A stretch of 64,000 bases of DNA from an uncultured Gammaproteobacteria bacterium. GTDB taxonomy: Bacteria > Patescibacteriota > Patescibacteriia > UBA11705. Position 1 is the stretch's first letter; every line of letters begins with the position of its first letter. Of this stretch, positions 5,308-63,395 are shown piece by piece. The position numbers and the translations under genes are program-made. The stretch spans positions 56,237 to 120,236 of the forward strand of contig CAYPSS010000001.1 of assembly GCA_964413735.1 (NCBI GenBank), given 5' to 3'. The notes beneath the pieces were generated by a model. That model did not search any database, had not been told where the DNA came from, and worked only from the letters and a program-made list of their open reading frames with translations.

Positions 5308-6021
5308 TTAAGATTGAGCATTGGTAAAATAATCGGACACATCATCATTTTCTTCCAAAGCCTCCAACATTTTATTTAACTGGCTTTGCGTGTTTTCATC
5401 CACTACCGTCTCGTCCTTGGCCACCCATTCCATTTCCGCATAAGAGATTGCCAATTTTTTATCTTCAATCAACTTCTTTAATTTCGGGAAATTATCAAAG
5501 GTGGTGATTACCGTCATTCCCTTGTCATCAACCTCAACATCCTCAGCCCCATTATCAATTAATTCCAATTGCAACTCTTCACTTTCACTAACTTGATCAA
5601 TTCGAATGATCCCTTTATGTTCAAACATCCATTTTACTGAATTAGGACCGCCCATCGCGCCATTATATTTGGAAAAAATGTGCTTTAAATCACTGGAAGT
5701 GCGATTACGATTATCCGTATTGGTTAAAACCAATATCGCCACTCCACCCGGTCCAAAACCCTCATAAATCACCTCTTCAATTTGTCCACCATCCGCCGTT
5801 CCGGCGCCACGCGCGATCGCTCGATCAATATTATCCTTGGGCATATTGGCCGCCCGCGCCTTATCAACGGCCAGACGCAATTTGAAATTCGTTTCCAAAT
5901 CCGCTCCACCCTTGGCCGCCACGATGATATTTTTAATAATTTTAGTAAATTGTCCTGAGCGTTTTTGATCAGCTACGGCCTTTTTACCGGCAATCTTACT
6001 CCATTTGTTATGTCCTGACAT
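5308..6021 (-). CDS. yebC: YebC/PmpR family DNA-binding transcriptional regulator
   Basis: 237 aa; MSGHNKWSKI start, GGADLETNFKLR, YEGFGPGGVAI conserved blocks. Confidence 0.85.
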   Translation of the reverse strand: MSGHNKWSKIAGKKAVADQKRSGQFTKIIKNIIVAAKGGADLETNFKLRLAVDKARAANMPKDNIDRAIARGAGTADGGQIEEVIYEGFGPGGVAILVLTNTDNRNRTSSDLKHIFSKYNGAMGGPNSVKWMFEHKGIIRIDQVSESEELQLELIDNGAEDVEVDDKGMTVITTFDNFPKLKKLIEDKKLAISYAEMEWVAKDETVVDENTQSQLNKMLEALEENDDVSDYFTNAQS

Positions 6022-7348: not shown

Positions 7349-8902
7349 ATGTTTATGACTTTTTGGCAAAAACTACAACATTTTAAATATCATAAAATCT
7401 TATTGGTGTTTTTGTTTTGTATTTTAATTTTTTCTTTATTTCAAGCACCGCATGGGATGGGCGACCCAGATGGCTTTTATCATGCCCGGCTATCGCAAAT
7501 GATGACTAACAACCTTACCTTCCAAGAATTCCCCTGGATGCAGTTTTCCACCCTAAATGAAAATTTCACTGATCATCATTTCTTGTACCACCTATTATTA
7601 ATGCCATGGACCATTGTTTTTGATCCTTTAATGGGCACAAAAATATTTACCGTTATTTTATCCTCATTATTCATTACTTGTTTTTATTGGTTTTTAACTC
7701 GCTATAATTTTCAATACAAACTACCATTATTATTTTTACTTTTTATTTTTACTTCGTTTTTCTTTCGTCTATCTTTAATCAAAGCCACCGCCTTATCCTT
7801 AATTATTTTGCTGTTTATAATTTATGCGATTTTTGAAAAAAAATATTCTCTGATTTTATTCCTGTCATTTATTTATGTTTGGAGTTACGGTGGATGGCTT
7901 TTGGGTTTGGTAGTTGGAGGAATTTACATTATTTCTGAAACAATTTATTTATTAATAAAAACAAAACCATCATGGAAATCCCTGATTAATAAAACATTCA
8001 ATTTTTCCAATAAAAAAATAATTTTCAATTTAGTCTTAGGCAACCTCATGGGGCTGATAATCAATCCCTACTTTCCTCAAAATATAAAATTTTACTGGCA
8101 ACAAATTTGGCAAATCGGTATTATCAACTATCAAAAAATAGTTGCCGTGGGAAATGAGTGGTTCTCCATTTCCTTATTAGACCTTGGGTCGCACTCGATT
8201 ATCACCACCGTTATAATTATCCTGACATTTACCTGGTGTATTATTAATTACAAAAAGATCAATCGCTTCACTATATTTTTCGCATTATTAACCATATTTT
8301 TCTTGCTTTTAACTTTGAAATCACGCCGTTATTTGGAATACTTTATTCCATTTTCCACTCTTTTTGTCGGATATTCATTTACCTTAAACAAACTCCAATT
8401 ACCAACTAATCGACAATCTATTATTGATTTTTTCAAAAGACCGTCCCATTTTATTATCAGTATAATAATTGTTATGATTTTATGTTTTCAATACGGTCAT
8501 AGCCTTTATAATGTAAAAAAAAACCTTAATCGTGACAAATACTTAAATTATCAGGGAGCCGCCCAATATTTGCAAAAACACACGCCTTATCATACCACGA
8601 TTTTTCATCCCGGGTGGGATGATTGGCCGGCTTTATTTTATTATAATCCCAACAATTACTATATTGGCGGGCTTGATCCCACCTTCACTTATTTATATAA
8701 TTCAAACCTTTATCAAAAATGGCAACAAGTGGTCCACCAACCGGCAAATAATGACTTTTATCAAATCATTAAAAATGACTTTCATGCTTCTTATGTTTTT
8801 GCGCCCAAACAATATAAACAATTTATAACAAATTTGAATAATAATTTTTATTTTAAACCGATTTATTCCGATGATCATGTGATTATTTATCAAGTCCTAT
8901 GA
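7349..8902 (+). CDS. Polytopic integral membrane protein, putative GT-C-fold glycosyltransferase-like
   Basis: 517 aa, more than 10 predicted TM helices; acidic DPDG motif in first extracytoplasmic loop; ATGA overlap with next gene. Confidence 0.45.
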   Translation: MFMTFWQKLQHFKYHKILLVFLFCILIFSLFQAPHGMGDPDGFYHARLSQMMTNNLTFQEFPWMQFSTLNENFTDHHFLYHLLLMPWTIVFDPLMGTKIFTVILSSLFITCFYWFLTRYNFQYKLPLLFLLFIFTSFFFRLSLIKATALSLIILLFIIYAIFEKKYSLILFLSFIYVWSYGGWLLGLVVGGIYIISETIYLLIKTKPSWKSLINKTFNFSNKKIIFNLVLGNLMGLIINPYFPQNIKFYWQQIWQIGIINYQKIVAVGNEWFSISLLDLGSHSIITTVIIILTFTWCIINYKKINRFTIFFALLTIFFLLLTLKSRRYLEYFIPFSTLFVGYSFTLNKLQLPTNRQSIIDFFKRPSHFIISIIIVMILCFQYGHSLYNVKKNLNRDKYLNYQGAAQYLQKHTPYHTTIFHPGWDDWPALFYYNPNNYYIGGLDPTFTYLYNSNLYQKWQQVVHQPANNDFYQIIKNDFHASYVFAPKQYKQFITNLNNNFYFKPIYSDDHVIIYQVL

Positions 8903-15011: not shown

Positions 15012-16544
15012 TTATAATTTTGAAATAATGAAGTTGAGGACAGAATAACTAAGGAAAATAGCCGCCAAACCCAAAATGGCCCAAAGGAAAGTATCCTTGG
15101 CCTCTGTCACCTTTTTCTTATCGCCACCACTGAACATATAACTCAGTCCACCATAAACAAAAATTGCAAAAGCAACCGAGCCAATAATACCAAAAACATA
15201 CTTTAATAATTCTCCAATAATCAAGGGCACACTTTTCCCTGTACCAACCAAACCAGAGGAACTAAACTTCTGAATTTGCGCCACCATATCATTATACAAA
15301 GCCGTCCCCTTGCCTTCTTCGCCACCTATTTTTGGCGCCTCAGCTTTTAACTCATCACACTGCGCTTCTCGTTCGGCAATTTTGGTTTGGTCATCAAAAG
15401 CCGCGGCCGCTTCTTTACATTTTAAAAGTGCCGCCGCCTCGGCCGTTGTTGCCGATATTTCATTACAACTATTTCTTAAATCCTCAATATTATTAGAAGT
15501 TTCTGATAATTCCAAACATTTATTTTTAATTTTTGCCACAATATCCGACATCCCGATACCTAAATTTTTTACAGTTATACTGGCCTGACCACCCCAACTT
15601 GATTTAACACTTATCAAAGCTCCGCCTGATAATCCTCCAGTAATCGTAATGGTCTTACCATTATTACTACTAATACTAACAACTGATGATGATGATGTTT
15701 CCCAAGTAAAAGCAGTTTCAACTCCAACATTTTCAAAATTACTGGAAGCGGTCAATTGGATTTGTTGATCGTTGTTTATTGAAACTTCATTATTCGTAAC
15801 AGTAATTTCTGCTGGTAAAATCATTTGTAAAGAATCTTTTTGTGGAAACATCGCAAAATCTCCTCGCACATAACTATAAGCATCATTACATGATTGGGTT
15901 GGTTCAAATTCCAACAGTGAATCATAGAGGTAATTTGCCTGTTCCACCATAGGATAATTTTCAGCATGATTATAAGTAACCATCTTAAGGTAAGCGGCCC
16001 AAATACTAGAAACTTCTGAAAAGCTTTGAGCTTTTTGTAAATTTTCTTTTAAGCTGTTACTAAGCTCTGAATCAATATTTAATACCCCCTCAACAATAAC
16101 TTCTTTATCATATTTGGAAAAATTATTAGGAGAAGCAATATAAATTAAACGTTGAGGTATTGTAGTATTAAAAACTGCACAACCACGATATTCTTTATAA
16201 TCCACCTCGGTTTTTGATTTACTATTAGGGAATCGGGTAAAACAGAGATCTTTATTGATACTTGCTTCGGCAATTAAATCCCAAGTATATCGATTATAAT
16301 AATCAACAAATAAACGTTCCGGTGATTGGCGATATTCATTGGTAAAAGTATTAAAACAAGAATTAATACATTCTGTTTCAGAAGTGGCATCAATCAAGGA
16401 AGTTGAATCTTTGGTTACAGCAAAAGATTCCCGATCTGCATCAGCCACCTTCAAATAACAACAACATTTTGTCGCCTGAGCAACCGACAAATCAAAAATA
16501 AAAAAACTACAAACAATAATTAAACCGATTAAATATTTTTTCAT
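15012..16544 (-). CDS. Large pilin-like family member: signal peptide, Cys-rich region, Big_2-like Ig domain, coiled coil, C-terminal two-TM pilin module (putative tip/adhesin pilin)
   Basis: 510 aa; C-terminal LIIGELLKYVFGIIGSVAFAIFVYGGLSYMFSGGDKKKVTEAKD...LGLAAIFLSYSVLNFIISKL matches the neighbouring small paralogs; Ig-like segment AFTWETSSSSVVSISSNNGKTITITGGLSGGALISVKSS. Confidence 0.5.
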   Translation of the reverse strand: MKKYLIGLIIVCSFFIFDLSVAQATKCCCYLKVADADRESFAVTKDSTSLIDATSETECINSCFNTFTNEYRQSPERLFVDYYNRYTWDLIAEASINKDLCFTRFPNSKSKTEVDYKEYRGCAVFNTTIPQRLIYIASPNNFSKYDKEVIVEGVLNIDSELSNSLKENLQKAQSFSEVSSIWAAYLKMVTYNHAENYPMVEQANYLYDSLLEFEPTQSCNDAYSYVRGDFAMFPQKDSLQMILPAEITVTNNEVSINNDQQIQLTASSNFENVGVETAFTWETSSSSVVSISSNNGKTITITGGLSGGALISVKSSWGGQASITVKNLGIGMSDIVAKIKNKCLELSETSNNIEDLRNSCNEISATTAEAAALLKCKEAAAAFDDQTKIAEREAQCDELKAEAPKIGGEEGKGTALYNDMVAQIQKFSSSGLVGTGKSVPLIIGELLKYVFGIIGSVAFAIFVYGGLSYMFSGGDKKKVTEAKDTFLWAILGLAAIFLSYSVLNFIISKL

Positions 16545-28067: not shown

Positions 28068-28508
28068 ATGCTGAAGTATATGATGGCAATGGTATTGGGA
28101 TATTTGATCCACAAGCATGGTGATCAGGTTACCAAGTATTGGAACAATCCGGAAGAGCTGGAAAAGTACTTTGAAAAGATCTTGAATGATGAAAAGCTGT
28201 CGGCTTTGAAGGAACGATTTGTGAAGGCTTTCAAGCAGGGAACGGATGCGCTGGAAGCGGAATTCAAGAAGTTCTTGGATGAGATGGCAGCCAAGGCCAC
28301 GGAAACTCCGCCGGAGGAGCCCGCTCCGCCTCCGGCTCCGGTGGTCATGCCCACGGAAAACTGCCAGAAGTGTGGGCAAGAGAATGCCATCGGCTCGCCC
28401 GCTTGTTCCAAGTGCGGTGGTCCGGTGACGTCGATTGCCGAATTGAAGGACATGTTGGAAGAGATCAAGAAGATTCCGCGCAAGCGTGGGCGGAAGCCTC
28501 CCAAGTAA
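28068..28508 (+). CDS. Small GC-rich protein: N-terminal hydrophobic helix, helical region, Pro-rich linker, CxxC-x11-CxxC zinc ribbon, basic AT-hook-like tail (RKRGRKPPK)
   Basis: 146 aa; coding region far GC-richer than genome; strong promoter, SD and terminator; ORFs on opposite strand are GC artefacts. Confidence 0.55.
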   Translation: MLKYMMAMVLGYLIHKHGDQVTKYWNNPEELEKYFEKILNDEKLSALKERFVKAFKQGTDALEAEFKKFLDEMAAKATETPPEEPAPPPAPVVMPTENCQKCGQENAIGSPACSKCGGPVTSIAELKDMLEEIKKIPRKRGRKPPK

Positions 28509-37986: not shown

Positions 37987-39378
37987 ATGGAAGATCGCAA
38001 TCAAGCTCTATGGAACGCCGTGTTGGCGGAAATGGAACTTAGCCTTAGTAAAGCCAGTTTTACCACTTGGCTGAAAAACACTTTTATAGTAAAGAACGAA
38101 GATGGCCGAATTGTTATCGGTGTGCCCAACACCTTTTCTCAGGCCTGGCTCAAACAAAAATACCACCAAAACATTTACAAGATTATCCAAGACAAAAGCG
38201 ACGAACGCATCAAGGAAATCATTTATCGGGTGCAAACCTTGAAAAACTACAAAGAAGAAGTGGAACAATTCAAGAAAAATGCGGTTAAAGAAGCTTGTTT
38301 GGACAGCATCCAAGCCAAACCAACCATTATTGAACCAACTTTTTCCGAAAATAACGGTTTAAACAACAAATATACTTTTGACAGTTTTATTGTGGGCAAA
38401 AACAATGAACTGGCCCACGCCGCCGCTAAGGCCGTGGCCCAAAATCCGGGTTTTACTTATAATCCGCTTTTTATTTATGGCGGAGTGGGACTGGGGAAAA
38501 CCCACTTATCCCAAGCCATTGGTAATGAGGTGACCAGAAATAATCCCAGTAAGAAAATTTTGTATGTTACTTGTGAACAATTTACCAATGATTTTATTTC
38601 TTCCATTCAAAGTGGCGCTCCCGAGAAATTTACCAAGGTTTATCGCACCGCTGATGTACTTATTATTGATGATATCCAATTTTTGACCGGTAAAGAAGGC
38701 ACGCAAGAAGCATTTTTTCATACCTTTAATGATTTACATCAGAAAAACAAACAAATTGTTATTACCTCGGATCGTCCACCCAAAGCCATTGCCACACTGG
38801 AAGATCGTTTATTGTCCCGTTTTGAATGGGGTATGATTGCTGATATTTCACAGCCGGACCTGGAAACCAGAATTGCGATTTTGGAAACCAAATGCAGGGA
38901 AAAAGAGTTTAATTTGGAAAGAGAGATCATCCAATACATTACTATGAATATCCAAAACAATGTCCGCGAATTGGAAGGCGCTTTGAATAAAATTATTGCT
39001 TATTATCAATTGAACAATATTTCTCCCACCATGGAAAATGTCAAAAATATTCTATTTTCCATTTCTTCTTCCAGTCGAAAAAACGATTCTGTCACCATTA
39101 AAAAAGTTTTGGAAACCATCAGCACTTTTTATGAAATTTCCACCGATGAAATTACCGGCAAAAGCCGTGAAAAGCGTTATGCCTTGCCTCGTCAAATTAT
39201 TATGTTTTTAATGCGCGAAGAATTAGGATACTCCTATCCAACAATTGGCGCAGAAATCGGTGGCCGAGATCATACCACCGCGATGCATGCTTATTCGAAA
39301 ATCAGTCGTCAAATAGAAAATGACGAAAAACTCCGCCAAGAATTAAATCTCTTGAAACAACGACTTTATTCTTGTTAA
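37987..39378 (+). CDS. dnaA: Chromosomal replication initiator protein DnaA
   Basis: 463 aa; Walker A GGVGLGKTHL, sensor motifs, C-terminal DNA-binding domain (RDHTTAMHA). Confidence 0.95.
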   Translation: MEDRNQALWNAVLAEMELSLSKASFTTWLKNTFIVKNEDGRIVIGVPNTFSQAWLKQKYHQNIYKIIQDKSDERIKEIIYRVQTLKNYKEEVEQFKKNAVKEACLDSIQAKPTIIEPTFSENNGLNNKYTFDSFIVGKNNELAHAAAKAVAQNPGFTYNPLFIYGGVGLGKTHLSQAIGNEVTRNNPSKKILYVTCEQFTNDFISSIQSGAPEKFTKVYRTADVLIIDDIQFLTGKEGTQEAFFHTFNDLHQKNKQIVITSDRPPKAIATLEDRLLSRFEWGMIADISQPDLETRIAILETKCREKEFNLEREIIQYITMNIQNNVRELEGALNKIIAYYQLNNISPTMENVKNILFSISSSSRKNDSVTIKKVLETISTFYEISTDEITGKSREKRYALPRQIIMFLMREELGYSYPTIGAEIGGRDHTTAMHAYSKISRQIENDEKLRQELNLLKQRLYSC

Positions 39379-39638: not shown

Positions 39639-40757
39639 ATGAAAATAACTTGTACCCAAGAAAATCTCAATCAAGGATTAAACATTACCGGTCATTTGGT
39701 AAATAAAAGTGTTAATCTCCCAATCTTAAACAATCTTTTAATTGAAGCCAAAGAAGGTCAAATTAAATTACTTTCCACTAATTTGGAAATCGGGATCAGT
39801 ACTTTGATCCGAGGAAAAATTGAACAACAAGGAGTGTTTACCGTTGATTCAAAACTTTTGGCTGATTATGTGTCTTTGCTACCAAAAGATAATGTGGAAA
39901 TGGAATTGGTCAAAGATGATTTTCTAAATGTTAAATGCAAAAATAATAATACCAGAATAAAGGGTATCCCGGCGGATGATTTTCCCGTTATTCCGGAAAT
40001 TGAAAAAAAAGATCCTTTTGTTGTTTCCATTAAAGAGCTCAAAATGGCGATCTCTCAAGTTTTGTTTGCGGTTTCCAATAATGATACTCGACCGGAGATT
40101 AGTGGCGTTTTGATGGCATTTGGGGACAATAAATTGATTTTGGTTGGGACCGACAGTTATCGTTTAGCGGAAAAGAAAATTTCCGCTTCTGGCTCCAGTA
40201 AACAAATGCAAGTGATTGTCCCGTTAAAAACTTTGCAAGAGTTGTTGCGTATTTTAAGTGCCATGAAGGAAGATTCGGAATTGGAAAATCTGGATATTTA
40301 TATTTCCGATAATCAAATTTTGTTTGTCATTGATGGTATTGAAATGATTTCTCGTTTGGTTGAGGGAAATTATCCGGATTACAAACAAATTATTCCAACC
40401 GACGCTAAAACTAAAACCGAGGTTAATACCAATGAGTTTGTCAAAATCATTAAAACCACTGCTTTGTTTTCCAAGGTGGGGATCTTTGATATTAAATTGG
40501 AATTTTTACCGGAAAACAAAAGTATTGTTGTTTCTTCCAATAATATTCAGGTTGGTGAAAGTGTTTCCGAGTTGGAAGTTGGATTTTCCGGCGAAAAAAA
40601 CAACACGACTTTAAACTATCGATTTTTGATTGATGGTTTATCAAACATTGGGAGCAGTGAAATTACCTTAGACGTAATTGATAATAATGTCCCTTGTGTG
40701 ATGAAGCCTAAGGGCGATGATAGCTATTTGTATATTATTATGCCGATCAAACAATAG
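39639..40757 (+). CDS. dnaN: DNA polymerase III beta subunit (sliding clamp)
   Basis: 372 aa; three-domain clamp layout, N-terminus MKITCTQENLNQGL, follows dnaA. Confidence 0.9.
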   Translation: MKITCTQENLNQGLNITGHLVNKSVNLPILNNLLIEAKEGQIKLLSTNLEIGISTLIRGKIEQQGVFTVDSKLLADYVSLLPKDNVEMELVKDDFLNVKCKNNNTRIKGIPADDFPVIPEIEKKDPFVVSIKELKMAISQVLFAVSNNDTRPEISGVLMAFGDNKLILVGTDSYRLAEKKISASGSSKQMQVIVPLKTLQELLRILSAMKEDSELENLDIYISDNQILFVIDGIEMISRLVEGNYPDYKQIIPTDAKTKTEVNTNEFVKIIKTTALFSKVGIFDIKLEFLPENKSIVVSSNNIQVGESVSELEVGFSGEKNNTTLNYRFLIDGLSNIGSSEITLDVIDNNVPCVMKPKGDDSYLYIIMPIKQ

Positions 40758-40771
40758 ATTATAAATAAAAA

Positions 40772-40797
40772 GACCGTCGCTTTCCGACGGTTTTTTT
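40772..40797 (+). terminator. Rho-independent terminator after dnaN
   Basis: accgtcg ctttc cgacggt hairpin plus TTTTTTT. Confidence 0.6.
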
Positions 40798-40808
40798 GTA
40801 GAAAAAAT

Positions 40809-41621
40809 TTACAAAGTTTTTACGTATTTTCTATAAGCAATAATCAGTAAAATTGGAAAAATTGTATAACAGGCAATTACATATGAAATCAAGATAAAAG
40901 GATTTATATCTGCCAGTCCTTTATAATAAATAGCTGAAATGGTCATTATAGGAAGCTTCCAAAAATCATTCGTTCCATAGGGATAAACACTAATTATTGT
41001 CATAAGTAAGGATATTTTAATAAAATAAAGAATCCACCCAATATAATCTTTCTGATTTTCTGTTTCTTTGAATAAAAACAACTTGTATGTTTGCTTTTTG
41101 TTGATTAAGTTATTCCAGATAAATAATCCGGGCAAAACAAGGCAAAATCCACTAATAATCACTATTGAAGTGTAAATTACGTTTAAAGATTTGTTCTTTA
41201 CCCAATGATTCTTTGGTTCCCAATATTCATGAGTTTTGAGGCTGTTTGGTTTGTGTAATCGCAATAAATACAAAATAATAATGTTAATTATAATAACAAC
41301 AAATGGTCCGGAAACGCTAAGAGCAAGATATTTTCCATTGATTGTATAGATTAAACCAAAATAACCTTCGGCCATTATTTTAACATAAGAACCATTAAAA
41401 GGGTTTAACCCAAGAATTAGGGGGGTACCTGCAATTGATGTTTGTATTTTTGTAAAACCTTCACAAATAACAATTTCCTTAACAGGCACATTGTAAAGTT
41501 TCATAATTGCAAAATGTCCCATTTCATGAATGAATGAAGTTGTATACAAAAACACAGAAGTGAAAATAATTAACTGCAAGGTTAAAACAAATAATTCCGT
41601 TATCTTGTTGCTTTTTCCCAT
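40809..41621 (-). CDS. Membrane metalloprotease-like protein with HExxH motif (M50/site-2-protease-like)
   Basis: 270 aa; FIHEMGHFAIM HExxH within a TM helix; multiple TM segments. Confidence 0.4.
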   Translation of the reverse strand: MGKSNKITELFVLTLQLIIFTSVFLYTTSFIHEMGHFAIMKLYNVPVKEIVICEGFTKIQTSIAGTPLILGLNPFNGSYVKIMAEGYFGLIYTINGKYLALSVSGPFVVIIINIIILYLLRLHKPNSLKTHEYWEPKNHWVKNKSLNVIYTSIVIISGFCLVLPGLFIWNNLINKKQTYKLFLFKETENQKDYIGWILYFIKISLLMTIISVYPYGTNDFWKLPIMTISAIYYKGLADINPFILISYVIACYTIFPILLIIAYRKYVKTL

Positions 41622-41738
41622 TTTTTCTCCTTGTTAAGGAACGAAGAACTATTGATTTTATTATAATTTGAGATTTTTGTCAATATTGAGAATGATTATT
41701 TAAAACAAAAGAGCAGTGAAATAATTCACTGCTCTTTA

Positions 41739-42146
41739 TGGTGCCGCGCCCGCCCCGCACCCGAAGTGGTGCGGGGAGCCGGAATCTCACGCGCTCGCAA
41801 CGACCTTGCTCGCTTCAAAAGGGGGATTCCTCCCCCTTTTGGGAACCCCTATCATTACAGATGGGAAACTCCCGTTTCCCATACCCTTCCCGTTCGATTC
41901 CGGATTAATAAAAAAACAATCCTTCTTGCGAAGAATTGTTTTTGGTGCCGCGCGTGCCCCGTACCCGAAGTGGTGCGGGGAGCCGGAATCTCACGCGCTC
42001 GCAACGACCTTGCTCGCTTCAAAAGGGGGATTCCTCCCCCTTTTGGGAACCCCTATCATTACAGATGGGAAACTCCCGTTTCCCATACCCTTCCCGTTCG
42101 ATTCCGGATTAATAAAAAAACAATCCTTCTTGCGAAGAATTGTTTT
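41739..42146. repeat. Two tandem 204-bp repeats, each beginning with a copy of the tRNA-Leu 3' end (CGCGGCACCA / AGCCGGAATC) interrupted by a GC-rich hairpin
   Basis: Units 41739-41942 and 41943-42146, about 97 percent identical, abutting the 3' end of tRNA-Leu(UAA); each contains a terminator-like hairpin plus T-run and a T-arm-like GTTCGATTCC box; ORFs 41766..42185 and 41806..42201 are repeat artefacts. Confidence 0.8.
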
Positions 42147-42234
42147 TGGTGCCGCGAGCCGGAATCGAACCGGCATGGAGTATAAGTCCGCTGGATTTTA
42201 AGTCCAGTGCGTCTACCAGTTCCGCCATCGCGGC
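42147..42234 (-). tRNA. tRNA-Leu (anticodon UAA), type II with long variable arm, CCA encoded
   Basis: GCCGCGATGGCGGAACTGGTAGACGCACTGGACTTAAAATCCAGCGGACTTATACTCCATGCCGGTTCGATTCCGGCTCGCGGCACCA; cloverleaf folds with anticodon loop CTTAAAA. Confidence 0.85.
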
Positions 42235-42237
42235 ACG

Positions 42238-42471
42238 TTAGAAGGACTTTAAAAACTCTTTTCCACAACAAGATTTCAAGTATTTCTCATGAGTTCTAGC
42301 TTCTTTCCTTGTTTCAAAGTTTTTAGTATAAATAACAACGAATGGTATGTATGGCCTTGTTGTTTTTTCTTTACCTGAATTATGTTGATAAAAACGTTTT
42401 TCAAGATTATTGGTTAAACCCACATAAATATAATTTTTTATTGTGCTTTTAATTGCATAAACATTATACAT
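42238..42471 (-). CDS. Small GIY-YIG nuclease family protein (YhbQ/UPF0213-like)
   Basis: 77 aa from MYNVYAIKS...; motif YIYVGLTNNLEKRFYQHNSG...R...E conserved; the ORF-track call (42238..42555) extends upstream through a tRNA-derived repeat and is probably too long. Confidence 0.55.
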   Translation of the reverse strand: MYNVYAIKSTIKNYIYVGLTNNLEKRFYQHNSGKEKTTRPYIPFVVIYTKNFETRKEARTHEKYLKSCCGKEFLKSF

Positions 42472-42480
42472 ATATAGATT

Positions 42481-42577
42481 TATCCAGTGCGCCTGCCTGC
42501 CGGCCCGCTCCGCCCGCGTAGCGAGGCGAGCAGGCAGATCTACCAGTTCCGCCATCGCGGCACGTTAGAAGGACTTT
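42481..42577. repeat. Partial duplicate of tRNA-Leu 5' half (acceptor plus D arm) interrupted by a 46-nt GC-rich hairpin, plus 14 nt of tRNA 5' flank
   Basis: tctaccagttccgccatcgcggcacgttagaaggactttt at 42538-42577 matches 42219-42258; insertion cctgcctgccggcccgctccgcccgcgtagcgaggcgagcaggcag; continues with GCGCACTGGA then diverges. Confidence 0.75.
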
Positions 42578-42689
42578 TGGACAAGAAAAATATTGTTTAA
42601 GAGCATTTGAAAAAAATTAAACTCTGAATAACAGAGTATAATCAGATCAATTATTTAAAGTAATAGGATACGTTTTTTAAAATTATCTT

Positions 42690-42880
42690 TCACCCGTTCA
42701 CTAATTAACTTTTGGAGCGGTAGAACGGGCTCCCCTCGATCCTTCGATGAGCTCAGGACTCGGGGTAAACTTCTCACCCGTTCACTAATTAACTTTTGGA
42801 GCGGTAGAACGGGCTCCCCTCGATCCTTCGATGAGCTCAGGACTCGGGGTAAACTTCTCACCCGTTCACTAATTTACTTT
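42690..42880. repeat. Two tandem 84-bp repeats each ending with a copy of the 20-nt 3' end of tRNA-Gly (GAGCCCGTTCTACCGCTCCA)
   Basis: tggagcggtagaacgggctc at 42713, 42797 and in the true tRNA at 42881; ORF 42655..42861 is a repeat artefact. Confidence 0.8.
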
Positions 42881-42956
<76 letters not shown>

Positions 42957-43025
42957 CCAATTGACGAAAATAATTATAGCAAAAACAAACAATAAGTCAA
43001 GCATAGATAAAACTAGTGGTAAGGG

Positions 43026-44708
43026 CTATTTTTGCATTTTACTCAATGATTTTATTTGATTGCGAATTTGTTTAATGGTATTTTTATCGTTAACAGAAAG
43101 GGCTTTGCCTTTGTTATTGGCCTTAATTAACATGATTTTTTGTAAATAGGCTTCAATTAAATTTTGGGTTAATGATTCAATGCTTTGGTTGTCCGTTTTT
43201 TTATTACTCTTTCTTTTTCGCGCAATTAAAATTATCAAAATTACCAATAAAATTAAATTGATAATACTTAAGATTGCCGCGCCATAGAATAAAATATTTT
43301 CTTTGGTGAAAATTGGCGGTTTTTCAATTACGTCAAAGGTGATCTTATTACCATAGATTGTTTCCGTTGATTCAGGCAGCAATAATTGGGCAAAAGCCTC
43401 ATAATTGCCAATTGATAATTTCTTGGTTTCAAACATGAAAATACCATGTTCATCGGTTTTGATTATTTGTGGGGTTGGCTCCTCGCCAATTTTATTTAAC
43501 CAAAAAGTAATGTTGGTGTTTGGTAATGATTGGCCAATAATGGTGTTTTTTTCTCCGTCAAAAATCGTTTCAAAGTAATCGGTGATTTCTGGCGCAGAAA
43601 CTTTAATGAAAACCGATGTGGTTTTTTCGTTAGTATTTCCGGCTTGATCAAAGGCGATTATTTTCACTTGAACTTCCCCTTTTGGGATATTGGTGATTTC
43701 CAAAAAATCATTTATAGCTTGGTCCGGTAGCAGGGTTATCGGCGCTTGGTTATTGAGAGAAACTTCATATTTGGCAATGCCGGAGATTTCGTCTGAAGCA
43801 GTAATTTTAATTTTTAATAAGTTGGTACTGGCCGATTGTTCATCAAAAGAGATTTCCGTTATTTGTGGCGCGGTTGTATCAATGTTAAAGGGAAATTCCG
43901 CAATATTACCCCAGCCTTTTTCGTTTCTCATTTGCGCACTAAAAAAATATTGGCCATCCGGTAATGGATCCAGGGCTCTTTCCCAAATTGGTGGTGTATA
44001 AATAACGGTTGGTTGTTGCCCGGTTGTTTGATTTAAGCCAAATCGAATAGCATTTGCTTGGTTGTTTGGTTGAATTTTGATTATTGGGCTATTGTTGCTA
44101 TACCAAGCATCTTTATTTGAATGGGTGTCAGAAAAAATATTCGGTGCGCTGATAATTGGAACAGTTTCTTCGGTTATGGGTTTTTCTTCTGGTGGCGCGG
44201 TTTCTTCAACGATTGACAAAGTGGCGGTGCCGGCTCCGGTAAAAACCGAAGTGCCTTCACCATCATTGGCTAAAATTTGAGAACCGGAAAAGGTCAGGGT
44301 GGTTTGCCCGGCTTTTTTTGTTCGCAAACTGACGGTCAAAATTTTTCCTCCCCCACCGGTATACCCGGGATTCATAATTATACCGTCAAAGTTAATTGTT
44401 CCGCCGGCATTGGAAAAAGAAGGCTCAGTTGCCCAAAAAGAAATAATTGAGCCACCCTTGTTAATCCCGGTTACCTCCAAAAAAGTGGAATCAAATTTAA
44501 TGGTACTGGAAACCGCATTAATCGCTTGATCAGTGGAAGATACGTAAATTCCATAAGTAACGGTTTCAGCCGGTTTGGCGGTTTTGTTGCCGGAAAAATA
44601 AAAACTGGCCGCCATTAATTGATTAAACGGAGATAAAATTAAGAGAAAACAAACAAGGGCAATAATTATTTTTGTTTTTGTCGCGAACATTTTGTTTTTA
44701 ATTTCCAA
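43026..44708 (-). CDS. Cell-surface protein with N-terminal cohesin-like domain, Ig-like/fibronectin-like repeats and C-terminal TM anchor
   Basis: 560 aa; signal peptide; cohesin-like block TVTYGIYVSST...IKFDSTFLEVTGINKGGSIISFWATEP...GKILTVSLRTKKAGQTTLTFSGSQIL; C-terminal hydrophobic anchor followed by basic coiled tail. Confidence 0.45.
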   Translation of the reverse strand: MEIKNKMFATKTKIIIALVCFLLILSPFNQLMAASFYFSGNKTAKPAETVTYGIYVSSTDQAINAVSSTIKFDSTFLEVTGINKGGSIISFWATEPSFSNAGGTINFDGIIMNPGYTGGGGKILTVSLRTKKAGQTTLTFSGSQILANDGEGTSVFTGAGTATLSIVEETAPPEEKPITEETVPIISAPNIFSDTHSNKDAWYSNNSPIIKIQPNNQANAIRFGLNQTTGQQPTVIYTPPIWERALDPLPDGQYFFSAQMRNEKGWGNIAEFPFNIDTTAPQITEISFDEQSASTNLLKIKITASDEISGIAKYEVSLNNQAPITLLPDQAINDFLEITNIPKGEVQVKIIAFDQAGNTNEKTTSVFIKVSAPEITDYFETIFDGEKNTIIGQSLPNTNITFWLNKIGEEPTPQIIKTDEHGIFMFETKKLSIGNYEAFAQLLLPESTETIYGNKITFDVIEKPPIFTKENILFYGAAILSIINLILLVILIILIARKRKSNKKTDNQSIESLTQNLIEAYLQKIMLIKANNKGKALSVNDKNTIKQIRNQIKSLSKMQK

Positions 44709-59958: not shown

Positions 59959-61332
59959 ATGTCTAAAATTGCATTAATTTTACTTAAATTAGTGGTTTGG
60001 TCATTGGCTGGCCTAGGTTTTTTGTTTCATAAAATATGGGAAATATCAAGGATCGTTTTTCGACCAATTAAGAAAATAATTAGTCAGATCAGCTGGAAAA
60101 TTTTTTCACCATTTTATCGTTTGGCGCTATCAATTAAAAGAAAATTATTTGGTGTTTATTCTCCGGCGAGAAATAAGTTTTTTAATATATTAACAAAAAA
60201 ATACAGTATTCATTTTTTGGTGATTTTAGTGGTTTTTTTTGTGTTTGTCGGTAATATTAATGCTCAGGAGATACGACGGGAAAATATAGGAGAAAATTCC
60301 ATTATTTTTTCTTTGTTTACTGATCAAGGAGCTTATGAAGTGGAAATAGTGGAAGAACGCGCTACCATTAATCCCCAAGAAAGAATTTTAAGTTATATTG
60401 ATAAAAGTACGCAAGTAACCACCAATCGGACAATTTATGACATGGCTCAAATTTCTGAGGAACAATTGGCGCAAGAATTAAGTACCGTGACAGAAGGTGG
60501 GGCGGTGGTGGTTAAACAAAACATTGTGGACGCTAATTTACCCGAGGGCACGGCTACGCCACGCTCAGGAATTATTGTTCATAAAGTTAGTGATGGTGAA
60601 ACCATTTCGGCTATTGCCACTCGTTATGGGGTAAGCGTGAATACCATTTTGTGGCAAAATAATTTAACGGCGCGTAGTGTGATTCGACCGGGAGCGGAAT
60701 TGGAAATTTTACCGGTTTCCGGGGTGGTTCATTTGGTTAAAAGTGGAGAATCTTTGATTTCCATTTCAAAAAAATACGGGATTGATCAAGGGCTGATTAA
60801 TGAAACCAATAGCTTGTCAGACGGTGATTCTTTGAAAATTGGACAAGCATTAATTATTCCGGGGGGTTCGAAAATCACCACTGCTGTTTCCAGACCGCAA
60901 TATGCTTCTAATACACAAGTTGATTTGAAAAAGATTTTAACCGGAAGTGAATCTCGCGGTAGCAGTACCGGAACCGGAAAAATGTTATGGCCCACTTCAT
61001 GGCGAGTAATTACTCAATATTATAGTTGGCGTCACCATGGTTTAGATATTGATGGTGATTACAATTCACCGATTTATGCGGCTGATGATGGTGTGGTTAC
61101 GCGAGCCGGCTGGGGCACGGGTTATGGTAATATGTATATTGTTGATCATGGTAATGGCATTGTTACTTATTACGCGCATTTAAGTAAGTTGTATGCCAAA
61201 CTTGGTGACGTGGTTAAACGTGGTGATGTTTTAGGAATGATGGGGACTACCGGTTGGTCAACAGGTACTCATTTACATTTTGAAGTACGTGTTAATGGCG
61301 CGCAAATGAATCCATTACAATATATTCAATAA
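59959..61332 (+). CDS. LysM-domain M23 family metallopeptidase (peptidoglycan DD-endopeptidase)
   Basis: 457 aa; N-terminal TM, two LysM motifs (ISAIATRYGVSVNTILWQNNL; LISISKKYGIDQGLINETNSL), M23 motifs HHGLDIDG and GTTGWSTGTHLHFEV. Confidence 0.8.
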   Translation: MSKIALILLKLVVWSLAGLGFLFHKIWEISRIVFRPIKKIISQISWKIFSPFYRLALSIKRKLFGVYSPARNKFFNILTKKYSIHFLVILVVFFVFVGNINAQEIRRENIGENSIIFSLFTDQGAYEVEIVEERATINPQERILSYIDKSTQVTTNRTIYDMAQISEEQLAQELSTVTEGGAVVVKQNIVDANLPEGTATPRSGIIVHKVSDGETISAIATRYGVSVNTILWQNNLTARSVIRPGAELEILPVSGVVHLVKSGESLISISKKYGIDQGLINETNSLSDGDSLKIGQALIIPGGSKITTAVSRPQYASNTQVDLKKILTGSESRGSSTGTGKMLWPTSWRVITQYYSWRHHGLDIDGDYNSPIYAADDGVVTRAGWGTGYGNMYIVDHGNGIVTYYAHLSKLYAKLGDVVKRGDVLGMMGTTGWSTGTHLHFEVRVNGAQMNPLQYIQ

Positions 61333-61877: not shown

Positions 61878-63395
61878 TCAATCAATATTTTTGGTGCGAT
61901 ATTGAAGAGCTTCAGCTAAATGAGATAATAAAATGTTATTTTGATTATCAAAGTCAGCAATGGTTCGAGCAATTTTTAATACGCGGTGTTGTGATCTGGC
62001 CGATAGGTGAAGTTTGGCGGTGGCATTTTTTAACAATTCCAAACTGTCATCAGATAAACGACAAAACTGGGATATTTCTTCGGGTCGCATTTCCGCATTG
62101 AATTTTATTTTTTTGTCCGTGAAACGCTGATTTTGAATTTCTTGAACTTTAATTATTCGTTCACGAATATCTTTGGATGTTTCTGCTTTTGTTTCGTTAT
62201 AAAGTTTTTCAAATTTAACTCTTGGGACCTCCACATGCAAATCAATCCGATCAAGAATTGGGCCGGAAATTTTTTTTCGATATTTCAAAATTTGTCCTAT
62301 AGAACAAGTACAGGTTTGTTCCGGATCAGAGGCATAACCGCAAGGACAGGGGTTTTGACTGGCCACCAGAGTAAAGCGGGCCGGGAAACTCAATGTTCCT
62401 TGAGCCCGAGAAATGGATACCACCCCATCTTCCAGCGGTTGCCGGAGATTTTCCAATACCATTCTTGGAAACTCGGGTAATTCATCTAAAAACAATACTC
62501 CACGATGAGCCAAACTGATTTCTCCGGGACGAGGAAACTTCCCTCCTCCCACCAGCGCCACGCCGGAACTGGTATGATGCGGGGAACGAAACGGTCTGGT
62601 ATTAATAATTGGTTTATCATTTGGCAATAATCCGGCAATGGAATATATTTTGGTGATTTCCAAAATTTCTTGATTGGAAAGAGGAGGTAAAATCCCAGGT
62701 AGCGCGCGAGCCATCAATGTTTTCCCTGACCCGGGTGGACCGTTCATTAATATATTATGTGCGCCGGCCGCTGACAATTCCAAGGCGCGTTTTACATGTT
62801 CTTGGCCTTTGATAAAGGACATGTCCACTTCATAAGAGGCAAATGCCGGAGAAATAATTCCGCCGGTTATCAACGGAGAAATTATATTTTCTTGATTTAA
62901 ATGAGCATAAAGCTCGTGCAAGCTATTAATTGGAAAAATATTGATTCCTTCTACTAAAGAAGCTTCGCTTTTATTTTTTTCTGGAATAAAAATATTTTTA
63001 TATCCCAAATCTCGAGCGGCAATGGTGGCGGGAAGAATGCCACTGGTTTTTCGTACTTGACCGTCAAAAGCCAATTCGCCGATAAAAATTGAATCACCTA
63101 GATCTTGTTTTAATTGCTTGGTTGTTAATAAAATGGAAACAGCAATAGCCATATCATACAGTGATCCTTCTTTGCGAACATTGGCCGGTGCTAAGTTAAC
63201 GGTTAATTTTTGACGCGGAAAAATAAAACCACTGTTTTTAATGGCAAATTTAACACGTTCTTTGGCTTCTTGAATTGCCGTATCTGGTAATCCGACAATA
63301 ATAAAAGCCGGCAGTTCACTGGAAGTATCGGTTTCAATTTCCACCATTTGCGATTCCAGGCCGGTTAAAACAATTGATTTTACTTTGGCAAGCAT
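61878..63395 (-). CDS. comM: YifB/ComM family Mg-chelatase-like AAA+ ATPase
   Basis: 505 aa; N-terminal Lon-protease-like domain MLAKVKSIVLTGLESQMVEIE, Walker A GPPGSGKT, Mg-chelatase ChlI-type motifs. Confidence 0.85.
   Translation of the reverse strand: MLAKVKSIVLTGLESQMVEIETDTSSELPAFIIVGLPDTAIQEAKERVKFAIKNSGFIFPRQKLTVNLAPANVRKEGSLYDMAIAVSILLTTKQLKQDLGDSIFIGELAFDGQVRKTSGILPATIAARDLGYKNIFIPEKNKSEASLVEGINIFPINSLHELYAHLNQENIISPLITGGIISPAFASYEVDMSFIKGQEHVKRALELSAAGAHNILMNGPPGSGKTLMARALPGILPPLSNQEILEITKIYSIAGLLPNDKPIINTRPFRSPHHTSSGVALVGGGKFPRPGEISLAHRGVLFLDELPEFPRMVLENLRQPLEDGVVSISRAQGTLSFPARFTLVASQNPCPCGYASDPEQTCTCSIGQILKYRKKISGPILDRIDLHVEVPRVKFEKLYNETKAETSKDIRERIIKVQEIQNQRFTDKKIKFNAEMRPEEISQFCRLSDDSLELLKNATAKLHLSARSQHRVLKIARTIADFDNQNNILLSHLAEALQYRTKNID

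Follow-up and report, generated by a model that had tools for sequence, protein, structure and literature searches.

Why does an intact tRNA-Leu gene in a patescibacterial genome lie among broken pieces of itself, next to the gene for a nuclease of only 77 amino acids and to two nearly identical 204-bp tandem repeats? This question is raised by positions 41739–42577 of a stretch of 64,000 nucleotides (contig CAYPSS010000001.1, positions 56,237 to 120,236), which is called the window here and whose coordinates are used throughout. From a comparison with related loci of other bacteria we hold, with moderate confidence, that the locus is the resident copy of a widespread, selfish, homing-endonuclease-like cassette that lives in tRNA-Leu genes.

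Read in the direction of the tRNA, i.e., on the minus strand, the locus begins with the upstream copy (42539–42577) of a 39-nt direct repeat, which a repeat search identifies as 100% identical to 42212–42250. This copy consists of 16 nt that correspond to the end of the GIY-YIG open reading frame (ORF) plus spacer (42562–42577) and of nt 1–23 of tRNA-Leu (42539–42561), comprising the acceptor 5′ strand and the D-arm. After tRNA nt 23, a GC-rich insertion of 47 nt (42492–42538) interrupts the fragment, which continues with nt 24–32, CGCACTGGA (42483–42491, minus strand, from the repeat search), and stops at the anticodon loop. The minimal GIY-YIG nuclease gene follows (42238–42471, minus strand, 77 codons plus stop), and only 3 nt separate its stop codon from nt 1 of the intact tRNA-Leu(UAA) gene with encoded CCA (42147–42234, minus strand, called by ARAGORN; Rfam RF00005, 61.6 bits). 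The tRNA is followed on the same strand by a tRNA-proximal 204-bp unit (unit 1, 41943–42146) and by a distal one (unit 2, 41739–41942) which is 98% identical to it. All elements named in a preliminary description of this DNA, the intact tRNA-Leu among them, are present in the order on the minus strand given there, although two of its measures change: the direct repeats, said to be spaced by 318 bp, are found 327 bp from start to start with 288 bp between the copies, and the GC-rich hairpin in the 5′ fragment measures 47 instead of 46 nt. Inverted T-arm copies within the 204-bp units and a tandem repeat at the neighbouring tRNA-Gly gene, both treated below, were absent from that description.

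The 77-aa product matches the Pfam GIY-YIG family (PF01541) over residues 1–67 with 60.3 bits (cutoff 22.6, E = 2.3e-16), and the nearest solved structures are minimal GIY-YIG proteins of the UPF0213 (YhbQ-like) type. In an alignment with I-TevI (1mk0), residues Y5, Y16, R26, and H30 coincide with the catalytic Y6, Y17, R27, and H31, and these four residues as well as E62, probably the equivalent of I-TevI E75, are invariant among 33 family members. Judged by these residues, the nuclease of the window locus is catalytically intact. The GIY-YIG domain leaves no room for a second domain, and family members have 77–81 residues. A public NCBI-sourced protein record (P0001), 100% identical to the window gene product, presents a 105-aa form (42238–42555) that, by its translation, is an over-extension: its first 28 residues translate the GC-rich hairpin and the tRNA fragment. 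Public databases list similarly over-long forms (95–133 aa) for many homologues. Exact look-ups of the 77-aa and 105-aa GIY-YIG forms, of the M50 protein, and of the window DnaN returned no record. Profile searches against PHROGs, PADLOC, and NCBIfam gave generic endonuclease matches only.

A scan of one genome per species detected at least 548 stretches encoding relatives of the window nuclease, and a metagenome scan added 337 further relatives. Linkage was counted in the best 158 non-redundant loci (79 from species-representative genomes and 79 from metagenomes); loci fetched for comparison are denoted by L-numbers. A tRNA-Leu gene lies on the same strand within 100 bp of the GIY-YIG homologue at 133 of these 158 loci (66 of 79 from genomes, 67 of 79 from metagenomes), where the gene precedes the tRNA in 92 cases and follows it in 41, and all five Leu anticodons occur among the adjacent tRNA genes. 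The loci outside the 133 are mostly cut by contig ends, and in others arrays of tRNA fragments separate the gene from the tRNA. Among the matches listed, host phyla comprise Patescibacteria, Bacteroidota, Ignavibacteriota, Nitrospirota, Omnitrophota, and Planctomycetota, and the Bacteroidota carriers include isolate genomes of Algoriphagus, Niabella, and Flavobacterium. The window protein shares 58–68% identity with homologues from Bacteroidota, Nitrospirota, and Omnitrophota, and 58–74% with the listed homologues across all host phyla, values that are hard to reconcile with vertical descent and speak for horizontal spread. More distant subfamilies display the same layout at other tRNAs, i.e., at tRNA-Arg(ACG) in L213 and at tRNA-Ser or a related T-arm in L139 and L076. 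The possibility that the cassette carries its own tRNA between hosts was rejected, as the tRNA-Leu adjacent to the window gene is host-like and shares at best about 82% identity, not above background, with other GIY-adjacent tRNA-Leu genes. The closest 77-aa homologue (74%), in L005 (3001–3234), has in-frame TGA codons; its genome reads TGA as sense, probably by code 25 (Absconditabacteria/Gracilibacteria), so that the cassette is present in recoded lineages too.

On the far side of the gene, loci of this family carry pieces of the intact tRNA which are usually 100% identical to it and which are interrupted by inserts of about 20 nt. These inserts are a single sequence, the perfect 20-bp palindrome CCTGCCTGCCGGCAGGCAGG, here called pal, which is near-invariant across phyla: the 158 loci, about 0.65 Mb in all, contain 170 matches with up to three mismatches, 95 of them exact, and in 81 genome-derived loci the median distance between pal and the ORF is 48 bp. 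For 140 matches a place in the neighbouring tRNA could be given, the commonest being after nt 22–24, at the end of the D-stem (52 copies), followed by the D-loop after nt 14–15 (39 copies), the T-loop at nt 62–70 (37 copies), and the position after nt 39 (5 copies). Asymmetric variants, for example CCTGTCTGCCGACAGGCAGG, are present in both orientations, indicating that pal is conserved as a sequence and not merely for RNA pairing, and pal would therefore seem to be recognised by a protein. L002, whose homologue is 73% identical to the window protein, is laid out like the window: nt 1–24 of tRNA-Leu(CAA), pal, nt 24–36, the ORF, and then the intact tRNA follow each other. The full two-sided form, which the window shares, with the order of a 5′ fragment with pal, the GIY-YIG gene, the intact tRNA, a 3′ fragment with pal, CCA, and a terminator is encountered in L128 and L115, and pal occurs on both sides of the ORF in L102, L157, L142, L161, L125, and L128.

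The insert of the window, located after tRNA nt 23 and thus at the commonest pal site, can be resolved into positions 1–12 of pal (CCTGCCTGCCGG, 42492–42503), a nested hairpin of 27 nt with a GCGTAGC-type loop (42504–42530), and positions 13–20 (CAGGCAGA, 42531–42538), of which seven of eight match; overall, 19 of 20 pal positions are kept. No intact pal exists elsewhere in the window. The GC-rich hairpins of the locus, which had been called unexplained, are thus accounted for in part: the 5′ one is a degenerate pal copy, whereas those in the pseudo 3′ tRNA ends of the 204-bp units occupy a recurrent insertion site but are not pal. At this site in the acceptor 3′ strand, L043 and the isolate Algoriphagus marincola (L072) carry hairpins too, and L072 shows that non-pal hairpins are used as well.

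A syntenic site without the cassette is available from Falkowbacteria-like bacteria (L174–176), although these are distant relatives with a DnaN only 70% identical to that of the window. There, dnaN is followed by a terminator, tRNA-Leu(UAA), 70 nt, and a tRNA-Gly gene that is 97% identical to that of the window, and the nuclease gene, the 5′ fragment, the 204-bp units, and the 84-bp units of the window's tRNA-Gly trailer are all missing from this locus. The upstream flank of the 5′ fragment could not be aligned convincingly to the Gly-Leu spacer of L174. The window genome has a second, different tRNA-Leu(UAA) gene, and L174 possesses counterparts of both. In the relatives, the tRNA-Leu(UAA) trailer (L174 6190–6340, L175 6190–6410) contains 34-nt hairpin repeats, CCAGCTAATTCT..TTCGGCTGGCAGG, each beginning with CCA, and a variant of this hairpin also follows tRNA-Gly in a Falkowbacteria-like relative. 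One sample has three copies of the repeat and two others have five, so that hairpin repeats accumulate in this trailer as in a hot spot and vary in number. Taken together, the linkage to tRNA-Leu at 133 of 158 loci, the hairpin-interrupted fragments, and the cassette-free relative strongly support one of the two explanations offered in the preliminary description, i.e., that of a mobile GIY-YIG cassette targeting the tRNA gene.

How might such a cassette spread and persist? By analogy with SegB of phage T4, we infer that the nuclease initiates recombination at tRNA-Leu genes. It would be co-transcribed with the tRNA cluster and would break tRNA-Leu genes that are free of the cassette. Repair by recombination would then copy the cassette in and partly duplicate the tRNA, a functional tRNA surviving in every case. 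Hairpin insertions would inactivate the redundant fragments and cut stretches of uninterrupted homology, thereby stabilising the cassette against deletion, and they may also remove cleavage sites. The 204-bp units would be a by-product on the 3′ side, consisting of the displaced, hairpin-disrupted 3′ end and a terminator copy, and unequal recombination between the 20–32-bp repeated sequences of 3′ end and terminator could have led to their tandem duplication. The 84-bp repeats at tRNA-Gly would be a like scar at the neighbouring tRNA.

Several observations weigh against this reading. An intact tRNA-Leu always lies beside the gene, and a simple tRNA-Leu cutter would cut its own locus. Classical homing avoids this, and the cleavage site can therefore not simply be the tRNA sequence. 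The 77-aa protein lacks the DNA-binding domain that characterised GIY-YIG homing enzymes possess. The adjacent tRNA is not co-transferred, as its low identity to other GIY-adjacent tRNAs indicates, so that the duplication either arises on insertion or is homogenised by gene conversion. Where the gene precedes the tRNA, most loci have no 3′ arrays, and the 204-bp units may be a separate, lineage-specific phenomenon; none of the fetched loci contains a homologue of their 172-nt core, whose hairpins are not pal. The inverted T-arm copy seems to have no place in the proposed mechanism. Finally, pal also occurs alone: of 42 exact copies in IMG/VR viral contigs, a single one has a relative of the GIY-YIG gene nearby, and a few solitary copies are found in bacterial loci far from any GIY-YIG gene.

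Such solitary copies shift attention from the nuclease to the palindrome. It is conceivable, and we suggest it tentatively, that pal and the 77-aa GIY-YIG protein constitute a novel bacterial mobile system, in which the minimal nuclease would recognise or process a near-universal hairpin that enters tRNAs in the D-loop, at position 23/24, in the T-loop, and in the acceptor 3′ strand. This could be a GIY-YIG hairpin transposon or, less likely, a protein-dependent insertion into and removal from tRNA genes or transcripts, a version that recalls the non-canonical tRNA introns of archaea. In such a system, pseudo-3′-end modules with an inverted T-arm would be footprints at any tRNA near an active copy. 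A related proposal, which we consider rather unlikely, is a palindrome-centred transposable system resembling repetitive extragenic palindromes (REPs) and their REP-associated tyrosine transposases (RAYTs). Here pal would be a mobile hairpin mini-element and the 77-aa protein its hairpin/cruciform nuclease or nickase; tRNA loops would be preferred landing sites, the nuclease gene would persist where pal clusters, and arrays would arise by nick-induced local amplification. The conservation of pal as a sequence, with asymmetric variants in both orientations, its proximity to the ORF, on both sides in several loci, and its solitary occurrence, both far from GIY-YIG genes and in phage contigs (once more within a tRNA, in the variable loop of a tRNA-Met), fit this proposal. 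Moreover, pal resides in non-tRNA hairpin modules too, e.g., at position 3714 of L002, and the hairpin nested in the window copy suggests that hairpins insert into hairpins. However, we know of no GIY-YIG DNA transposase in bacteria, no target-site duplication surrounds pal, and the GIY-YIG family is nearly absent from pal-bearing viral contigs (3 loci). Also, the strict specificity of the window subfamily for tRNA-Leu, and of others for tRNA-Arg or tRNA-Ser, is left unaccounted for, and the 3′ hairpins of the window are not pal. The selfish cassette in tRNA-Leu genes is the reading that we prefer.

Some occurrences of pal deserve description in their own right. In two phage contigs from IMG/VR (L178 at about 8560–8680 and L201 at about 2230–2340), exact pal lies in the variable loop of a tRNA-Met(CAT), where a hairpin of 20 nt would mimic the long variable arm of class II tRNAs. 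L101 (1660–1760) has exact pal in the D-arm of a non-Leu tRNA (anticodon TAT by eye); no intact copy was seen in this 4.2-kb locus, and the pal-bearing tRNA may be the sole copy. High-GC viral contigs from the same source (L177, L179, L182, L185, L198, L200, L202, and L206) contain pal in intergenic stretches of short tandem repeats, for example GGTGAGAGG, TAACCTC, or CCAATG, and in L197 a GTAG tetranucleotide precedes pal, as in the heads of REPs.

What, then, are the units that follow the intact tRNA? Tandem Repeats Finder (TRF) reports 2.1 copies of a 204-bp repeat with 98% identity (41735–42156), and a repeat search agrees, so that the two tandem repeats with pseudo 3′ tRNA ends noticed earlier are real features; repeats of such length and identity cannot arise by chance. 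Each unit combines a bidirectional terminator hairpin with the T-arm in inverted copy (CCGGAATCGAAC), two to three hairpins, and a direct pseudo 3′ end in which a hairpin interrupts the tRNA sequence (GATTCCGGCTC, the hairpin CCCCGCACC-ACTTCG-GGTGCGGGG, and CGGGCGCGGCACCA). On the minus strand, unit 1 comprises the terminator (42116–42147), the inverted T-arm (42088–42107), hairpins at 42065–42086 and 42020–42045, and the pseudo 3′ end (41943–41990), which is made up of GATTCCGGCTC, a hairpin at 41957–41980, and GCGGCACCA. Unit 2, on the same strand, comprises the terminator (41912–41943), the inverted T-arm (41884–41903), and the pseudo 3′ end (41739–41786) with its hairpin at 41753–41776. 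Three differences distinguish the copies, all in or beside the GC-rich hairpin, and one of them breaks a pair. The hairpin of the distal unit is perfect, and that of the tRNA-proximal unit deviates at one position (GGGTACGGGG) from the sequence given in the preliminary description. Direct repeats of the tRNA-Leu 3′ end are thus located at 41767–41786, 41971–41990, and 42147–42166, and in each unit pairing is possible between the inverted T-arm copy and the pseudo 3′ end in direct orientation.

The tRNA-Gly gene upstream in the same cluster has repeats of its own, an 84-bp unit present in 2.5 tandem copies (42690–42900, minus strand, detected by TRF and repeat search) that are 99–100% identical. 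This unit ends in a pseudo tRNA-Gly 3′ end (GAGCCCGTTCTACCGCTCCA) and holds the hairpin GGGTGAGAAGTTTACCC. In the unrelated locus L030, a similar hairpin (GGATGAGAAGTTTATCC, 2060–2080) with one compensatory stem change follows tRNA-Gly(GCC), which suggests a module family specific for tRNA-Gly.

These properties invite the explanation that the tRNA operon releases the units of 204 and 84 nt as functional structured RNAs, i.e., CCA-bearing mimics of tRNA 3′ ends with a role in processing or stability or as decoys, and that their link to the nuclease is positional only. A very stable fold is predicted, with −197 kcal/mol and z = −10.8 for two units and z = −3.4 for one, loops resemble UUCG, GNRA, and GCGNAGC motifs, and CCA followed by a terminator closes each unit. 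The pairing inverted T-arm copy recurs with different sequences at independent tRNAs (window tRNA-Leu, tRNA-Gln of L101, L081, and L002), the hairpin common to the tRNA-Gly unit and L030 changes in a compensatory manner, and other hairpin repeats occupy the same trailer in relatives. Yet the opposite strand folds about equally well (z = −3.8), the copy number is variable, and the differences between copies are confined to the hairpin region, where one of them disrupts a pair. A terminator precedes each unit, and the terminator/promoter scan found no promoter-like site for the units. A covariance search of 41500–43100 with Rfam 15 (gathering thresholds and E ≤ 10) returned tRNAs only, everything else scoring at least 27 bits below the gathering score, and BLAST of both units against the window and all fetched loci yielded no homologue, the partial sharing with L030 being limited to the 11-mer TGAGAAGTTTA. 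The suggestion that the unit might encode a known structured RNA is not borne out by these searches, and we regard a function as structured RNA as improbable.

Tandem arrays of tRNA fragments, hairpins, and copies of a flank or terminator, comparable to those of the window, are common in this family. In L141, five units of 108 bp lie between the intact tRNA and the gene, each with a terminator copy and the 3′ portion of tRNA-Leu, interrupted by pal in the T-loop. Two units of 90 bp in L072 consist of the upstream flank and nt 1–44 with pal, L013 has two units of 97 bp at tRNA-Val, and in L034, L073, L102, and L157 the tandem units comprise the gene, a disrupted tRNA, and a terminator. Downstream copies of tRNA 3′ ends were detected at 62 of the 193 tRNAs in fetched loci, compared with 8 in upstream controls. 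At non-Leu tRNAs adjacent to the cassette, such copies exist for tRNA-Val (L013, L025), tRNA-Gly (L030), tRNA-Arg (L005), and tRNA-Gln (L101), each of them with a T-loop hairpin or an inverted T-arm copy. The design consisting of terminator, inverted T-arm, GC-rich hairpins, and direct pseudo 3′ end recurs with unrelated sequences at tRNA-Gln of L101, in L081, and in L002, and an inverted T-arm copy likewise follows a tRNA in L014. Within the window, 3′ units are present at the two tRNAs nearest to the nuclease gene and at none of the five tRNAs situated 10–16 kb away. In several Patescibacteria, long GC-rich stretches after tRNAs (L002 3340–3950, L014 2860–2990, and L094 580–1080) are dense in mini-hairpins of the GCGAAGC, GCGTAGC, and GNRA types, and a motif GAA(A)AGCCGGAGC-hairpin-GCGAGGNTGGG following an inverted T-loop copy is common to L002 and L014.

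Direct repeats of a tRNA 3′ end might also be remnants of serial integrase-mediated integration and excision (attL/attR scars), with the GIY-YIG gene as unrelated cargo, and this was the other explanation proposed in the preliminary description. Its topology stands: such repeats do lie downstream of the gene, downstream 3′-end copies are far commoner than upstream ones, as counted above, and the terminator hairpin beyond the last pseudo 3′ end (41708–41737, terminator scan), distinct from that of the units, resembles the terminator at the same place in L174/L175 with one compensatory stem change. By this resemblance it probably represents the terminator that the tRNA-Leu gene had ancestrally, and the last pseudo 3′ end abutting it fits the expectation that the outermost fragment is the original 3′ end. 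Integration at an att site as such is not supported, since no integrase or recombinase is encoded within about 4 kb, the units are cargo-free and only 84–204 bp long, the 5′ end is duplicated too with the same logic of fragment and hairpin, and hairpins occupy fixed positions in every displaced fragment. The linkage of GIY-YIG genes to tRNA-Leu would have to be a coincidence. We therefore reject an island of the integrase type and consider scars of an integrase very improbable.

Independent assemblies of a close strain bear on the repeats as well. A strain with 99% identity over dnaA–dnaN is contained in four Logan assemblies, each from another run, and three of the four contigs end within the terminator hairpin of the 204-bp unit, at a point where a flank-specific k-mer (T followed by six A) merges into a k-mer common to the unit copies. 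Such ends are expected if the terminator is repeated in those samples too, which argues against an artefact of a single assembly. That the tandem copies result from mis-assembly, as their near-identity and the breaking of short-read assemblies of the related strain at the repeat might suggest, is thus hardly credible, given that the two copies differ at three positions and have distinct unique flanks, that three independent assemblies end where more than one copy is implied, and that like arrays exist in many unrelated assemblies, including isolate genomes. After dnaN, the 99%-identical strain carries a quite different M50 peptidase gene (35% amino acid identity over 51 residues; window 40797–41700 versus L169 3946–4786), which indicates that the segment from dnaN to the tRNA-Leu array has been replaced between close strains. 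In the protein collection, no near-identical GIY-YIG protein from the Logan runs was found, the best match apart from P0001 having 74% identity, and this hints that the 99%-identical strain may not possess the GIY-YIG gene.

The locus is placed in the region of the chromosomal origin, with dnaA at 37987–39378, dnaN at 39639–40757, and a turn of the GC skew near 38–40 kb. The window has a G+C content of 36%, and its DnaN is 69–70% identical to proteins of Candidatus Falkowbacteria, which identifies its host as a patescibacterium. ORFs within about 4 kb of the locus encode DnaA, DnaN, an M50 peptidase, Ig-like and dockerin-like proteins, and one protein without family. A strong promoter-like site predicted by the promoter scan (43000–42973, minus strand) lies upstream of tRNA-Gly(GCC) (42881–42956, minus strand, ARAGORN and Rfam), the first gene of the tRNA-Gly/tRNA-Leu cluster, and is the predicted driver of this cluster; a terminator was detected at 42637–42621 (minus strand, terminator scan). 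A tandem pair of tRNA-Leu(UAA) and tRNA-Leu(CAA) at 52462–52648, flagged by TRF as a repeat of about 100 bp, has neither GIY-YIG gene nor fragments nor trailer repeats. Further short GC-rich islands in the AT-rich window are found at 5789–5824, 15430–15454, 28305–28346, 54565–54591, 60541–60564, 61098–61123, and 62541–62566, and several of them are probably coding.

If the cassette reading is correct, a GIY-YIG nuclease reduced to its catalytic domain has spread into the tRNA-Leu genes of hundreds of species that belong to very different phyla, always with a working tRNA kept and together with a 20-bp palindrome that hardly varies among these phyla, and provides a compact natural case of a selfish nuclease that occupies an essential gene without killing its host. 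It would account for many mis-annotated “GIY-YIG” ORFs of 95–130 aa and undetected pseudo-tRNAs beside tRNA-Leu genes, and it would offer a concrete cause for GC-rich hairpin islands and tRNA-seeded tandem repeats in AT-rich genomes of Patescibacteria. Studies could also make use of a very small nuclease, perhaps specific for a sequence or a structure, whose partner site of 20 bp is defined. A description of such an arrangement of GIY-YIG gene, tRNA-Leu, and palindrome was not found in a literature search that covered open-access papers and bioRxiv.

With which known systems can the cassette be compared? It is no known RNA family, group I intron, integrase island, or REP/RAYT pair. Group I introns with homing endonuclease genes in tRNA anticodon loops, among them the tRNA-Leu(UAA) intron and tRNA introns of Patescibacteria, concern the same gene type and phylum (PMC13011429), and the window fragment stops at the anticodon loop, where such introns classically insert, with a nuclease ORF following. 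Most tRNA introns of Patescibacteria have no endonuclease gene, and those with one encode HNH enzymes (PMC13011429). A group I intron was rejected for the window locus: RF00028 gave no match at E ≤ 10, and what follows the ORF is a complete tRNA starting at nt 1 rather than a 3′ exon. Direct repeats (attL/attR) are left behind by integrative elements with tRNA 3′ ends as targets. As in the window, these repeats of the 3′ end lie beyond a restored tRNA, with the outermost copy at the original flank; in contrast to such elements, the window has no integrase, its units measure 84–204 bp, a hairpin is present in every displaced copy, and the 5′ end is duplicated.

REP/RAYT pairs (“REPtrons”) share with pal and its GIY-YIG gene a short GC-rich palindrome that is tied to and sometimes flanks a small nuclease gene and has solitary copies elsewhere. 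RAYTs are HUH/Y1 enzymes, however, and REPs are extragenic, species-specific, and not targeted to tRNA loops. A REP/RAYT pair was rejected on the grounds that the enzyme belongs to the GIY-YIG family and that the palindrome is shared across phyla. The GC clusters of yeast mitochondria are selfish GC-rich palindromic clusters in an AT-rich organelle genome, and the palindromic repeats in Volvox organelles are likewise selfish GC-rich palindromes (PMC2670323). They resemble the window elements in being GC-rich hairpins within AT-rich DNA and in nesting into other repeats, but they are organellar and linked neither to a specific nuclease gene nor to tRNA fragments.

In the way it would work, the cassette comes closest to the free-standing homing endonuclease genes of the Seg type. 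SegB is a free-standing GIY-YIG homing endonuclease encoded in the tRNA cluster of phage T4, its site contains the conserved T-psi-C stem-loop motif of a tRNA gene, and homing has been demonstrated, SegB driving the inheritance of itself and of neighbouring tRNA genes (PMC2330249). Like segB, the genes of the window family are situated between tRNA genes and are not intron-borne, no intron family being detected on either strand, and they show presence/absence polymorphism among relatives, in our case the distant L174–176. SegB is phage-borne, whereas the window family is chromosomal and nearly absent from viral contigs; homing has been demonstrated for SegB and would be expected here by analogy. 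Moreover, the window protein is smaller than SegB and consists of the catalytic domain only, so that the separate DNA-binding domain of the Seg type is lacking. SegB is not accompanied by duplicated, hairpin-interrupted tRNA fragments or by a conserved palindrome, and the window family has both. A 20-bp palindrome shared across phyla, its fixed insertion positions in duplicated tRNA fragments, and tandem arrays of such fragments are features of this family that go beyond the Seg type.

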